Position numbers and translations under genes: made by a program. From a candidate division FCPU426 bacterium (lineage in GTDB: Bacteria; Oederibacteriota; PGYV01; Palsa-1178): a stretch of DNA of 64,000 bases. Numbering within the stretch: the stretch's first letter is position 1; every line of letters begins with the position of its first letter. The stretch covers positions 1,280,001 to 1,344,000 of the forward strand of contig CAWIXE010000002.1 of NCBI GenBank assembly GCA_963840035.1, given 5' to 3'. The notes under the pieces were generated by a model. It saw nothing but the letters and a program-made list of their open reading frames with translations. It was not told where the DNA came from and made no database searches. Of the stretch, positions 1-5,304 are shown piece after piece.

Positions 1-825
1 GGGTCAACAAAAACATCAGGCCCATTTGGCATGGAAATACCCGTCATGGGCGACCTTGGCGACCAGCAGGCAGCGCTTTTCGGCCAGACATGCTTTGAAA
101 AAGGCATGGCAAAAAATACATACGGTACAGGATGCTTCCTTCTGTTAAATACCGGTGAGAAGCCGGTATTTTCAAAGAACGGATTGATAACCACAGCCGG
201 TTATAAAATCGGGGATTCCCCTGCTGTATACGCCCTTGAAGGTTCTATCGCGGTAGCAGGAGCGCTTGTGCAGTGGTTCCGCGACAAACTCGGCATAATC
301 ACCTCAGCACCTGAGATAAATTCCCTTGCTTCTAAAGTTGAAGACAACGGCGGAGTTTACTTTGTCCCCGCATTCTCCGGCCTCTTTGCCCCCTACTGGC
401 GCTCTGACGCGAGAGGCTTGTTAATAGGCTTAACGCACTTTACAGGCAAGGAACATATCGCGCGCGCCGTACTTGAAGCTGTTGACTTCCAGGCAAGGGA
501 AATTTTCGAAGCCATGGCAAAGGACTCGGGAATAAAACTCACCACCCTTAAAGTAGACGGCGGCATGACAGCCAGCGAACTGTTAATGCAGTTCCAGGCG
601 GACATACTCAACGTAACAGTCGCAAGGCCCAAGGTTGCGGAAACCACAGCCTTAGGCGCCGCGTACGCGGCAGGCCTGGCTGCAGGGTTCTGGAAGGATC
701 AGGATGAATTAAAAAAGAACTGGATACTTTCAAAGGAATGGAAACCGCAGATGCCCGAGGAAAAACGGGAGAAATATTTTAAACAATGGAAAAAGGCAGT
801 TTCTAGGTCCATGGCCTGGATGTAG
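1..825 (+). CDS. glpK: Glycerol kinase, C-terminal part (5' end outside window)
   Basis: FGGY kinase motifs [57 protein letters not shown]. The stop TAG (823-825) lies inside a GTAG REP. Confidence 0.95.
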
Positions 826-992
826 GGGACGCGCTCCTGCGCGTCCCGCCAAGCTTTGGAACGCGGCTTTAAGATCTAATACCATGCTGACAGCACTTGT
901 AGGGGACGCGCTCCTGCGCGTCCCGCCAATGCTTTAGAACGCGGCTTTAAGATCTAATACCATGCGGACAGCGCGGGAGCGCTGTCCCTACA
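821..992. repeat. GTAG-REP cluster: two ~77-bp tandem direct units (starting 821 and 898) plus an inverted REP (966-991)
   Basis: tgtaggggacgcgctcctgcgcgtcccgccaa(t)gcttt(g/a)gaacgcggctttaagatctaataccatgc occurs twice, followed by ggacagcgcgggagcgctgtccctac. Confidence 0.85.
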
Positions 993-1003
993 AAGGAAAA
1001 AAA

Positions 1004-2482
1004 ATGAAAAACAAGTACGACATCATCATAATAGGTTCCGGCATTGTTGGTTCCCTTGTTGCCCGCTATCTGTCCCGTTATGAGCTGTCTGTGCTTGTCA
1101 TTGAAAAAGAAATAGACGTCGGCATGTGCCCTTCTTCCGCAAACTCAGCCATCATACACGCGGGTTATGACCCGCTTCCGGGAACCTTGAAGGCAAAAAT
1201 GAATGCCGAAGGCAATAAAACATGGCATAAACTCGCGCCCGAGCTTGGCATTATTTATGAAAAAACAGGCAGCCTTGTAGTTGCCGTAGGTGATAACGAA
1301 CTTCCCCACCTGAAAGAACTCTATGACCGCGGCATTGCAAATAACATCCCCGGAATCGCTTTAATAGGCAAAGAAGAACTCATAAAACGCGAGCCCATGA
1401 TAAACCCGGAAGCTTCAGGCGCGCTCTGGGCGCCTTCCGCCGCTGTCATTGACCCTTTTGGCGCTGTCCTTGCCGCTGCCGAGAACGCCGTGGAAAACGG
1501 CGTCACTTACCTCTTTGAAACCGAATTTTTAGAATTTATTCTTGGTAGGGACAGCGCTCCCGCGCTGTCCGCACGGGTCATAGGCGTTAAAACCACAAAA
1601 GGCGATTTCTTCGCCAAGTGGTGCGTCAATTCAGCGGGCTTGTATTCAGACGAGGTCAGCCATAAAGCGGGTATAAGAAACGAATTCGTAATCACCCCCC
1701 GCAAAGGCAGCTACCTTATATTTGACCCGGCCGCGGTACACCTGAACAACGTGATATTCCCTGTTCCTTCTGATAAAGGCAAAGGAATACTTGTATCCAC
1801 AACCACACACGGCAATGTCCTCATAGGCCCGAATAATGAACCCTGCGGGAACAAAGAAGACTCATCCACTACAGCCGCCGGTTTTGAAGAAGTATTTAAC
1901 GGCGCGAAAAAGCTGGTCCCGTCGCTTGCCTTAAAGAACGTTATTGCCTCCTACAGCGGCATCAGGGCCACAGGCAACCACGTGAAAGTAAGAGACTATA
2001 TAATAGAAACTCCAGCCGAAGTTAAAGGCTTTATCAACATATGCGGCATTGAATCCCCCGGCTTCGCGTCAGCCCCGGCTATCGCTTTATACGTTGTGGA
2101 ACTGCTAAAGGCGCAGGGCGAGATTCTAAATGAGAAACCGGACTGGAACCCTGTAAGGAAACCAAAGGTCCACTTCCATATGCTTTCAAACGCTGAAAAA
2201 GCCGAACTTATAAGGTCCAATCCCTCTTATGGCAGGATTGTATGCCGCTGTGAGGAAATAACTGAAGGCGAGATTTTAGACGCCATCCACTCCAATATCC
2301 CTGCCCGCACATACGATGGCATCAAACGCAGGACATGGCTGGGCACAGGCAGGTGCCAGGGGGCGTTTGATTATCCAAGGGTAATACAGATACTCGCGAA
2401 GGAACTCGGAATACCTGAGACAGAAGTCACAAAGAAGGGCAAAGGAAGCGAGCTGGTATTTAGAAGAACAAAACAACTGTAA
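1004..2482 (+). CDS. FAD-dependent oxidoreductase (glycerol-3-phosphate dehydrogenase GlpA/LhgO-like) with C-terminal BFD-like [2Fe-2S] domain
   Basis: GSGIVG Rossmann motif, SSANSAIIHAG, GIESPG, C-terminal VCRCEE...GRCQG; follows glpK. Start moved to ATG 1004, after AAAGGA. Confidence 0.85.
   Translation: MKNKYDIIIIGSGIVGSLVARYLSRYELSVLVIEKEIDVGMCPSSANSAIIHAGYDPLPGTLKAKMNAEGNKTWHKLAPELGIIYEKTGSLVVAVGDNELPHLKELYDRGIANNIPGIALIGKEELIKREPMINPEASGALWAPSAAVIDPFGAVLAAAENAVENGVTYLFETEFLEFILGRDSAPALSARVIGVKTTKGDFFAKWCVNSAGLYSDEVSHKAGIRNEFVITPRKGSYLIFDPAAVHLNNVIFPVPSDKGKGILVSTTTHGNVLIGPNNEPCGNKEDSSTTAAGFEEVFNGAKKLVPSLALKNVIASYSGIRATGNHVKVRDYIIETPAEVKGFINICGIESPGFASAPAIALYVVELLKAQGEILNEKPDWNPVRKPKVHFHMLSNAEKAELIRSNPSYGRIVCRCEEITEGEILDAIHSNIPARTYDGIKRRTWLGTGRCQGAFDYPRVIQILAKELGIPETEVTKKGKGSELVFRRTKQL
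1545..1573 (+). repeat. GTAG REP located inside the coding sequence
   Basis: gtagggacagcgctcccgcgctgtccgca is the exact reverse complement of 963-991. Confidence 0.9.
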
Positions 2483-2515: not shown

Positions 2516-2603
2516 GTAGAGAGGGGGCTTGCCCCCTCTCAGCGCTGGCTCAAACAACCGGTTTATAAACCCGGCGTAGAGAGGGGGCAAGCCCCCTCTC
2601 TAC
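2516..2603. repeat. GTAG-REP pair (GTAGAGAGGGGGC..GCCCCCTCTC)
   Basis: Palindromic copies at 2516-2540 and 2576-2603. Confidence 0.85.
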
Positions 2604-2637: not shown

Positions 2638-3987
2638 ATGAACAAAACGTACGACGTAATAATAATCGGCGCCGGGCCGGCTGGCCTTGCAGCCGCCATA
2701 GAGGCTAAAAATACAGGGGCAAAAGACGTGCTCATCATTGAGCGAAATGACGAGCCCGGAGGCATACTTCCCCAGTGCATACATAATGGCTTTGGCTCGG
2801 TCATATTTAAAAAAGACCTTCCCGGGCCTTTATACGCGCACAACTTCATTCAAGAGGCAAAGGCAGCCGGGGTTGAAATGCTTCTTGATACAATGGTCCT
2901 GGATATAAACCCTGCGCGCCGCATTTCAGCTACAAATAAGCAGCTTGGCTTTATCGAACTTGACGCAAAAGCCGTCATCCTTGCCATGGGGTGCCGCGAG
3001 CGCACGCGCGCGCAGATACGTATACCAGGCGAGAGGCCAGCGGGTGTTTATACCGCCGGCATGGTACAACGGCTGGTCAATATCGAAGGTCTTATGCCGG
3101 GCAAAAACTTCGTTATATTGGGCTCCGGTGATATCGGCATGATAATGGCAAGAAGACTGACTCTGGAAGGCGCTAATGTACTTAAGGTTGTAGAGCTTAT
3201 GCCCTATCTGACCGGCCTGCGCAGGAATTATGTTCAGTGCCTGCAGGACTTTTCCATCCCCCTTTCGCTTTCAACAACCATAAAAAAAATAATCGGAAAA
3301 AGCCGCGTCGAAGCCGTCGAGACCGTAAAGGTGGATGAATCATTAAGGCCAATCGCCGGCACTGAAGAGATTATACCTTGCGACACGCTTTTATTATCCG
3401 TAGGGCTTATCCCTGAAAACGAACTTTCCAAGAAAGCAGGCGTAATTCTCGACCCTCTGACAGGCGGTCCGATTGTGGATGAGAACATGGCCACAAACGT
3501 CCCCGGCATATTTGCCGCGGGTAACGTGGTAACTATTTACGACCTCGCGGATTATGTCTCCAAAGCCGGCATGATAGCGGGCAAAAACGCGGCAATGTAC
3601 GCGTCGGGAAAAAACACAGTAAAAAAATATACGGAATTAAAGCCAGGTGACGGAGTAAGGACTGTTGTGCCCCAGAGAATCAACGTAGAGACGCCACCCG
3701 TGGGCGTCTCCGGGCCTGCTGAGACGGGCACGGGTCCCGTCTCTACGGAGCTATTACTTGAACTCCGCGTAACCCGCGAGTTCCCCTCGGCTGTAATGGT
3801 TGAGATTGTAGACGGCGATAAGGTCATATTTTCCCACAGGGAAAAATACGCCCGCCCCGCGGAAATGATAACAATAAAGGCCAAGACCGAGGATTTTCTT
3901 TCAAAAATCAGCAAAGACTCTAATGGATTGACTGTACGCATAACGCCAGCGCATAATCCCATGACACAAGACTCAGTACCCAGGTAG
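2638..3987 (+). CDS. NAD(P)/FAD-dependent pyridine nucleotide-disulfide oxidoreductase, partner of the GlpA-like protein
   Basis: GAGPAGLAAA, GGILPQCIHNGFG, AMGCRER, GSGDIG, CDTLLLSVGLIPENEL, GIFAAGNV. Confidence 0.85.
   Translation: MNKTYDVIIIGAGPAGLAAAIEAKNTGAKDVLIIERNDEPGGILPQCIHNGFGSVIFKKDLPGPLYAHNFIQEAKAAGVEMLLDTMVLDINPARRISATNKQLGFIELDAKAVILAMGCRERTRAQIRIPGERPAGVYTAGMVQRLVNIEGLMPGKNFVILGSGDIGMIMARRLTLEGANVLKVVELMPYLTGLRRNYVQCLQDFSIPLSLSTTIKKIIGKSRVEAVETVKVDESLRPIAGTEEIIPCDTLLLSVGLIPENELSKKAGVILDPLTGGPIVDENMATNVPGIFAAGNVVTIYDLADYVSKAGMIAGKNAAMYASGKNTVKKYTELKPGDGVRTVVPQRINVETPPVGVSGPAETGTGPVSTELLLELRVTREFPSAVMVEIVDGDKVIFSHREKYARPAEMITIKAKTEDFLSKISKDSNGLTVRITPAHNPMTQDSVPR
3684..3747. repeat. 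Inverted GTAG-REP doublet (REPIN-like) located inside the coding sequence
   Basis: cgtagagacgccacccgtgggcgtctc, 10-nt spacer, gagacgggcacgggtcccgtctctacg. Confidence 0.9.
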
Positions 3988-4042
3988 ACAACCTGGGTCA
4001 TGGGTCTTGAGCCTTGAGACCGCTTTTACCGGAGGTTTATTC

Positions 4043-4402
4043 ATGCAACGCAAGTACATTTGTATCCGCTGTCCTCAGGGCTGTGAAGTCACAACCACGC
4101 TTGACGGCAACGGCGCCATAACAGAAATTACAGGCAATTCCTGCAAACTTGGGATTGATTATGTAAAAGCCGAGTCCACTGACCCGCGCCGCACTCTTAC
4201 AACCACAGTCATGGTGGAAGGCGGGCGCCATCCCCTGTGCCCCGTGTGGACGGAAAAACCCATACCAAAGGATAAGATATTGAAGGCCGCGGATGAATTA
4301 AGGGGCATAAAATTAAAGGCGCCTGTCATGGCAAACCAGATAATACTGGAAAATATCGCGGGGACGGGAATAAATGTGATTGCCAGTACGGACATTGGCT
4401 GA
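4043..4402 (+). CDS. DUF1667-like CxxC small metal-binding protein of glycerol operons
   Basis: CIRCPQGC...GNSCKLG...PRRTLTTTV. GGAGG RBS precedes ATG 4043. Confidence 0.8.
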   Translation: MQRKYICIRCPQGCEVTTTLDGNGAITEITGNSCKLGIDYVKAESTDPRRTLTTTVMVEGGRHPLCPVWTEKPIPKDKILKAADELRGIKLKAPVMANQIILENIAGTGINVIASTDIG

Positions 4403-4507
4403 TTCTAAATTCTAGATTCCGGATTCTGGATTACAATCAAATACCAAATAAAACAACACCGCATTTCCCCGCATCAATCCAGAATCTAGAATTCAGAATC
4501 CAGAATC
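4401..4507. repeat. Inverted heptamer arrays (GATTCTR / CAGAATC) between convergent genes
   Basis: 4401-4432 gattcta aattcta gattccg gattctg; 4476-4507 cagaatc tagaatt cagaatc cagaatc. Confidence 0.8.
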
Positions 4508-5304
4508 TTCTTAACCCACTTATAAAGGTCCGAAAAAACCTCATTCCTGTTCTTCTCTATGGAGAGCGCGTGGTATGAGTCGTGGTATAGGTGCAGTTCT
4601 TTTTTTGCCTTTATTTTATCAAACAGCATGAGGTTGTACTTTGTATCCCCCAGCATATCCTTTCCTGCCAGCAGGAAGAGTACCGGTATGTGAATCCTTC
4701 CTTCTGTCAGGGAAACCTTTAACTCCCTTAATAATATCTGAACAAGCAGCCCTGCCGACGCCAGCCTGTGTTCCCTTTTATCAGCCTTAATTTTCTTTAC
4801 GACCGCATTATCTCTGGTGAGTTCCTCTGCGGTAAACGGCATATGAATCGCCTTTGACGGATTGAACATCCCGGTAATTGCCACATTTGCCCTTTTTGCG
4901 AGGCTCATTTTCATAACATCCTTATAAACAGGGGCGATCTCTATCAGGCCCTTATATCCGCTGTCAAAATCAAGGACTGTCATGTGAGCGATAAGCGCAC
5001 CCATTGATTCTCCGGCGATGAATACCGGAACTCCCTTATTTTCAGCCTTTATTATCCCCTTTAATACGGCGATGTCCTTGCTGTATATATCCATTGAATC
5101 AACATGACCCGGCTTATCCCCGGAAATCTCCCCAAATCCGCGCAGGGCTATGGCGTATACCGCTATTTTTTTTGCTTTCAGGTATTTTGCCATAAAATCC
5201 CAGCGTTCCGAGTGCGCGCCCATTCCGTGTACGGCAAGTATGACCGCGGCCGCTTTCTTTACGGGCCATTTCCTGAAGCAGATGCCTTCCTGTTTAATAA
5301 GCAT
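4486..5304 (-). CDS. Alpha/beta hydrolase, lysophospholipase/monoacylglycerol lipase-like
   Basis: VHGMGAHSERW, LRGFG, nucleophile elbow GESMG, C-terminal YHAL. Confidence 0.85.
   Translation of the reverse strand: MLIKQEGICFRKWPVKKAAAVILAVHGMGAHSERWDFMAKYLKAKKIAVYAIALRGFGEISGDKPGHVDSMDIYSKDIAVLKGIIKAENKGVPVFIAGESMGALIAHMTVLDFDSGYKGLIEIAPVYKDVMKMSLAKRANVAITGMFNPSKAIHMPFTAEELTRDNAVVKKIKADKREHRLASAGLLVQILLRELKVSLTEGRIHIPVLFLLAGKDMLGDTKYNLMLFDKIKAKKELHLYHDSYHALSIEKNRNEVFSDLYKWVKKILDSEF

Follow-up and report, generated by a model that had tools for sequence, protein, structure and literature searches.

How does a palindromic repeat that normally lies between genes come to occupy the middle of an intact enzyme gene, and is its presence there a single accident or one state in a longer history? 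The question is raised by a stretch of 64,000 nucleotides (the window) in the 3.46-Mb, three-contig genome assembly of a candidate-phylum bacterium (G000), in which an earlier note had described two inverted GTAG REPs at codons 350-370 of a flavoprotein gene. Our analysis bears out this description. The 62-nt element (positions 3685-3746) consists of two unlike GTAG REPs in head-to-head arrangement, a heterodimer with its GTAG ends outermost and its partners on the plus and the minus strand, respectively (Table 1). The open reading frame runs from 2638 to 3987 without interruption, codons 350-370 are read as claimed, and the element is stop-free in the fngB frame alone among the three forward frames. 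Two copies of the 9-mer GTAGAGACG are present in the window, one at 3685 (+) and one at 3738-3746 (-), against an expectation of 0.09, and this count was reached in 0 of 100 shuffles. Each 26-nt REP is predicted to fold into an 8-bp stem closed by a 7-nt loop, with the 5' tag left unpaired (z-scores of -3.4 and -4.2), and the doublet as a whole yields a z-score of -4.55, with no equally good fold among 200 shuffles. A comparison of both REPs reveals differences at 4 of 26 positions, corresponding to two stem pairs swapped from C-G to G-C. This swap had been interpreted as compensatory change. It is real, but it does not represent compensation within fngB, since both stem subtypes are abundant in G000 and paired there as 41 heterodimers of the loop type (60-82 nt, the fngB copy included). 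Stem covariation is thus a trait of the REP family, and heterodimers with unlike stems have already been described (Di Nocera, De Gregorio and Rocco, 2013, PMC3733652).

Table 1. Positions of the repeats, the surrounding genes and the inserts in relatives. Plain coordinates refer to the window; all other entries name a contig, a protein row or a locus.
Feature	Location	Strand	Basis or remark
glpK (glycerol kinase), 3' part	31..825	+	likely begins upstream of window
REP cluster, glpK to likely fngA start	822..991	.	sequence
fngA-like subunit gene (DAO + BFD [2Fe-2S])	1004..2482	+	ORF-finder start 962, likely start 1004
In-frame REP inside fngA, GTAGGGAC family	1545..1570	+	net +7 aa; in 0/15 orthologues
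Intergenic REP pair, GTAGAGAG family, fngA-fngB gap	2516..2603	.	second REP double-footed
fngB-like FAD/NAD(P) subunit gene, 449 aa	2638..3987	+	PF07992; QCIH at residues 46-49
fngB codons 350-370, predicted disordered loop	3685..3747	+	between strands 347-349 and 371-378; pLDDT
GTAG REP, left partner (GCC-stem subtype)	3685..3710	+	motif count, fold, copies in genome
Dimer spacer, 10 nt	3711..3720	.	between the two REPs
GTAG REP, right partner (GGG-stem subtype)	3721..3746	-	motif count, fold, copies in genome
fngC-like DUF1667 gene	4043..4402	+	domain match
REP-containing insert, HdrA-like protein, +21 aa	G000 C1:34868-34892		L081
REP-containing insert, FolC, +22 aa	G000 C2:456745-456770		L082
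Full heterodimer in FngB loop	P0003, P0013		peptide alignment
Longer compound in FngB loop	P0012		peptide alignment
Single or collapsed hairpin in FngB loop	P0002, P0009, P0010, P0016		peptide alignment
Dimer, left REP read in another frame, FngB loop	P0006		peptide alignment
Residue 92-97 inserts in FngB	P0003, P0013, P0016, P0036/L017 (G014, perfect REP), L016 (G011, decayed)		alignment

The loop REPs have numerous counterparts elsewhere in G000, which contains 604 GTAG hairpins (with 12 listed prefixes) in 296 clusters and 187 copies of the GTAGAGACG head. Two other copies identical to the left loop REP and 14 identical to the right one are found in this genome, and the nearest other dimer copy (C1:709990) contains the same two REPs, separated by a different, 8-nt spacer. 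At all 14 fourfold-degenerate positions within them, the loop REPs are equal to other G000 copies, whereas 58-67% of the fourfold sites differ between G000 and its relatives (8 of 8 comparisons). The loop sequences are therefore either much younger than the divergence of the gene or homogenised. Searches for Y1 transposases gave eight matches in G000. A RAYT-like gene for a 172-aa protein (C1:7050-7565) is flanked by REPs of the loop REP family (GTAGAGACGCC and GTAGAGACGGG), and its product matches PF01797 above the cut-off. This gene speaks for the rewriting of the loop proposed below. Two points bear against it: the flanking REPs are at least 2 bases away from the loop REPs, and the sole NCBIfam match, to the RAYT model NF047646 (E 1e-17), scores 64.4 bits and hence lies below its cut-off of 80.

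The earlier note described REPs in general as normally extragenic, and in G000, 281 of the 296 clusters are located outside predicted ORFs even though ORFs cover 84% of the sequence. Based on the gene calls made in this analysis, a search for REPs inside coding sequences returned the other 15 clusters; 11 of them were disregarded because the gene ends on which they lie are probably mis-called (10 in the first 38 codons, 1 C-terminal), leaving 4 that are internal. Three of these 4, in fngA (+7 aa), an HdrA-like gene (+21 aa) and folC (+22 aa), are private to G000, as they are absent from all 15, 10 and 18 orthologues, respectively. REPs are thus strongly purged from genes, and what sets the FngB loop apart is its occupation in several lineages. 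A degenerate REP-like stretch with 4 mismatches was also noted at C1:2616-2641 (L083), inside a predicted gene of 967 aa.

Judged by its sequence, the host protein is likely to be FngB, a subunit of a glycerol-phosphate enzyme. It fits the published definition of this subunit in the electron-bifurcating FngABC complex (PMC13689815), comprising PF07992, a QCIH motif, an adjoining DAO+BFD subunit of ~500 aa, a DUF1667 subunit and glycerol kinase, and the QCIH motif is invariant in 98 of 98 aligned rows. The complex would accordingly be expected to oxidise G3P in a ferredoxin- and NAD-dependent manner. The gene order glpK, DAO+BFD, PF07992 with QCIH and DUF1667 is common to the published system and G000; in G000, FngA and FngB additionally contain one REP-derived loop each. 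Fold searches with FngB returned generic, thioredoxin-reductase-like matches, none of which was named as a solved FngB structure. In an AlphaFold2 model (mean pLDDT 88), the insert is located between two strands of the C-terminal domain, and pLDDT drops below 50 at residues 354-368. This low-confidence loop agrees with the expectation that the insert falls in a surface loop, and the REP segment would accordingly be translated as a flexible, predicted surface loop of FngB. Several further features of the operon were seen in passing. The N-terminus assigned to FngA by the ORF finder (962-1003) crosses a REP at 966-991, so that the true start likely lies at 1004, and the REP within fngA is identical in sequence to those on either side of another RAYT-like gene at C2:1380687. 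A GC-rich palindrome at 3948-4010 overlaps the fngB stop codon, and the protein extends ~12 aa further at its C-terminus than most homologues do; this palindrome was rejected as a repeat family, having one weak match elsewhere in the genome. Downstream of fngC, A/T-rich inverted repeats with gattctaga-like units were recognized by eye at 4398-4510.

To what extent is the loop new? We aligned 119 homologues, comprising the 15 closest and 104 more distant ones, and measured the span from P345 to E375. In all 104 distant homologues, this span comprises 14-17 residues (17 in 79 of them), as compared to 31 in G000, so that a segment of equal length, which would have argued against an insertion, is absent from homologues without the insert. 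A gap is indeed found exactly here, as predicted, but it is smaller than the expected ~20 aa, the net gain amounting to ~14 residues. With 21 REP-derived codons, about 7 ancestral codons must thus have been replaced. The suggestion that a selfish repeat had created a new 21-aa loop consequently stands as far as the insertion of a repeat, the predicted surface position and the 21 REP-derived codons are concerned, but the loop is not wholly new. We are nearly certain that the insert in fngB represents an in-frame REP dimer, either recent or refreshed, in a loop that tolerates it.

The insert is not a one-off. In close orthologues, this site is filled by other segments derived from REPs, including full heterodimers, a longer compound, single or collapsed hairpins and a dimer read in another frame (Table 1). 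Twelve of the 15 closest homologues have 20-45 residues in this loop, and 8 of the 15 show a match of 6-9 residues to translations of the G000 REPs, as opposed to at most 5 residues in the 104 others. A search with the region 325-440 produced 12 matches, one of them new (P0121), and no further close orthologue with a repeat-bearing 350 loop was detected among genome and metagenome contigs, the close matches being duplicates of P0005 and P0007. Within the class, fngB is present in 17 of 24 genomes, with open frames of at least 421 aa in all 17; the loop was read as DNA in 14 of them and as protein in the other 3. Repeat-derived loop DNA was identified in 4 of the 17 genomes, clearly in G000, G010 and G006 and in decayed form in G002, whose loop is only weakly REP-like (19 matches against a background of 14-17). 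These 4 repeat-bearing loops were examined as DNA, and the remaining ones were judged by their peptides. The 18-residue loop of G001 was rejected as a decayed REP, as its 17 matches do not exceed the background of 14-17. In the G002 loop (L003, C88:82191-82203), a 13-mer of another repeat is nested within the decayed REP, inside the coding frame; it is exact and has 14 copies in G002 and 13 in G000.

The segments at this site largely match the REPs of their own hosts. In a reciprocal search across five genomes (G000, G001, G002, G006 and G010), the intact loop REPs had their closest match in their own genome in all 3 genomes that carry them, with one REP also present in G001. Both loop REPs of G010 have copies with 1 mismatch in G010, one of which lies in the RAYT gene of this genome, whereas G000, G001, G002 and G006 contain no copy of them within 2 mismatches. 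The right REP of G000, in turn, has no counterpart within 2 mismatches in G010, G006 or G002; it has 5 exact copies in G001, whose own loop lacks a REP. The G006 loop REP is 1 mismatch away from a G006 copy, with the next bases also alike, and 2 mismatches away from copies in G001 and G002, while none was found in G000 or G010. At the level of subtypes, G006 and G002 contain no GTAGAGAC-type REPs, and GTAGAGAGG-type matches number 81 and 103, respectively. For each loop REP, the best of many copies was picked, and REP cores can be common to different genomes, as in the case of G001, so that host matching is a weaker proof that the loop REPs arose locally.

In several relatives, this site is thus occupied by REPs that differ and belong to the respective host, suggesting that the loop has likely been rewritten repeatedly. 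In addition, the junctions are shared: among 12 repeat-bearing rows, the repeat begins ~3 codons past the residues PQ in 8 (5 clear, 3 decayed) and ends directly before E-x-L/F in 9. These common junctions, together with the missing ancestral codons, favour a founder insertion that was followed by rewriting. At a probability of roughly 0.55, we therefore prefer the reading that a tolerant FngB loop was colonised once and then rewritten by the REP/RAYT system of each lineage; the insert itself is probably neutral. In this scenario, an ancestral REP event would have replaced ~7 loop codons. The resident REP may then have become a target of strand exchange catalysed by the RAYT, or of gene conversion by abundant copies, leading to its swap for the current subtype. 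Slippage could have collapsed some dimers to single hairpins, with others decaying or being lost, and selection would have kept frame-preserving, stop-free outcomes only, leaving the peptide sequence free to vary. There is precedent for these steps, since the TnpA-REP protein of E. coli catalyses strand exchange between REP sites in vitro and has been proposed to mediate integration at or near resident REPs (PMC3333891), and REPINs are described as inserting into or beside existing REPINs and as undergoing central deletion (PMC3116915). One observation bears against a founder with later rewriting: G001, the weakly supported sister of G000, has REP copies but a background-like loop.

The main competitor of this reading posits that there was no common founder and that the loop, as one of the few places in an operon rich in REPs where inserts are tolerated, was hit independently in at least five lineages. 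We regard it as possible, if clearly less probable. Phylogeny leaves room for both. In a quick tree of 70 rows, calculated with the loop removed, all repeat-bearing rows fall into a clade of 26 (SH-aLRT 87), in which they are mixed with empty rows. This clade was not recovered with support in a careful tree (30 of the 70 rows, LG+G4), whose deep forks are open, which requires 5-7 changes of the REP label and in which a single REP group appeared in 0 of 200 bootstraps. These label changes and open forks speak for independent hits. An AU test nonetheless did not reject a single origin, represented by one clade that includes three empty rows (p 0.36), the group having been picked after seeing the trees. 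Independent hits would also explain why the inserts are unlike in family and reading frame, and the fngABC operon is indeed dense in REPs, with 4 clusters in 3 kb, a density of at least 4 being reached in 6 of 1152 3-kb bins (a post hoc comparison). Moreover, a second FngB loop, at residues ~92-97, contains dissimilar repeat-like inserts of ~17-29 aa in 5 class-level rows and a different palindrome in one distant row (L060), and in G011 and G014 this loop is occupied while the 350 loop is empty. Independent hits thus also occur in fngB. On the other hand, clean insertions should retain the ancestral codons, which most repeat-bearing rows lack, and they provide no reason for common junctions. 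Furthermore, the three other in-frame REPs of G000 are private to this genome, indicating that a single site is not, as a rule, hit repeatedly and independently.

A second alternative holds that the hairpin, as a structure in mRNA or DNA, or the peptide is kept by selection, for instance because it tunes how stable the fngABC message is or how well it is translated, or because it contributes to subunit contacts. Such a role would fit with the persistence of repeat-derived DNA at this site in 4 of the 17 class genomes that have the gene and with the presence of inserts in both subunits of G000. We nevertheless consider it improbable, given that length (20-45 versus 14-17 residues), family, frame and peptide are all variable, that 13 of the 17 genomes, including the REP-rich G012, G022 and G023, lack a recognisable repeat here and that the loop is predicted to be disordered. 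Finally, a dead gene or an assembly artefact is very improbable, because the frame is intact here and at all 17 orthologous loci, the invariant family residues are kept, including QCIH, the protein is 69-79% identical to its orthologues despite a difference of ~60-67% at fourfold sites, and the same architecture recurs at the same site in independent assemblies (P0003 and P0013).

How does the FngB loop compare with known systems? The earlier note had assumed that translated palindromic inserts are known mainly from Rickettsia. This assumption does not hold, as intragenic GTAG REP dimers coding for 20-30 aa have been reported from several species and proposed to be neutral in loops (PMC3733652). 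The fngB insert shares with these cases a head-to-head GTAG heterodimer within an ORF that codes for ~20-30 aa. It differs from those described in the available text in that the site is filled across families of one order, with host-matched subtypes, varied frames and replaced ancestral codons, and that it lies in a candidate phylum. The closest precedent mentioned there is recB, in which two Xanthomonas species have unlike REPs at approximately the same position. Rickettsia RPEs are likewise palindromic repeats translated within conserved genes (PMC3184786, PMC3733652), but they measure ~105-146 bp (PMC3184786), and RPE-4 and RPE-6 bear CGTC tags (PMC3733652), whereas the fngB element comprises 62 nt, carries GTAG tags and would be linked to RAYTs; based on size and tag, an assignment to the RPEs was rejected. 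Another parallel is provided by RAYT/TnpA-REP proteins of subclass 2.4 (Bertels group 4; Quentin et al., 2018, PMC6006769), which are associated with long, double-foot GTAG REPs and in which frame-preserving REP insertions give rise to a hypervariable protein segment. There, the variable loop is part of the transposase itself, whereas here it belongs to an unlinked metabolic enzyme. REPINs and BIMEs (Bertels and Rainey, 2011, PMC3116915; Ton-Hoang et al., 2012, PMC3333891) share the doublet unit, insertion at existing copies and collapse by central deletion; these elements are extragenic, whereas in fngB the same life cycle would proceed under the constraint of a reading frame. Switches of REP class have further been described at orthologous RAYT loci (PMC3686654).

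REPs within genes were therefore known before, and a single insert of this kind is ordinary. What is added by our sequence comparison is the finding of different, host-matched REP-derived segments in the same loop of close orthologues, and it is this repeated recolonisation that lifts the case above routine. The literature searched, whose coverage was limited, gave no example of a metabolic gene in which host-matched REPs turn over across an order, and same-site turnover in orthologous genes was represented there by the recB remark and the insertions within RAYTs only. The comparative pattern is useful since the movement of REPs in vivo is still described as unresolved (PMC3333891, PMC3116915). 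A coding site with conserved flanks fixes the orthology and the junctions to the base, so that the loop records a dimer, a collapsed hairpin, a nested repeat and decay, and these successive states span lineages with near-saturated synonymous sites. The FngB loop thus offers a direct test of resident-REP replacement. It is tempting to speculate, although we hold this idea with considerable reserve, that FngB contains 'REP-writable' loops, in which a seeded REP keeps recruiting the domesticated RAYT of its host and the segment is continually rewritten with the current repeat. If true, the replacement of REPs in vivo would be recorded in such loops in a form that can be dated and is constrained by the reading frame, and the loops might also supply variation on which selection has acted. 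From a practical perspective, the analysis points to two loops of the FngABC family, itself characterised only recently, that tolerate insertions and could be used for tagging or engineering, and it serves as a warning that such loop peptides are repeat-derived rather than functional motifs.

In-frame REPs were also observed in the RAYT genes themselves, where they directly follow the HUH motif at 5 of 21 RAYT-like loci of this order (L178, L172, L166, L162 and L183), a placement already described for subclass 2.4. The gene at C1:545248 of G000 is among them, and the RAYT gene at C1:7050 lacks such repeats. At L178 (G010 C5:416791-417438), three in-frame REPs follow the motif. G010 additionally contains a multi-copy element of ~1.65 kb (L186 and L187, C1:191805-193450 and C5:60865-62510) whose ends lie within one REP subtype, with at least 6 such pairs. 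Its 480-aa transposase-like frame presumably encodes a DDE/IS1182-like transposase.
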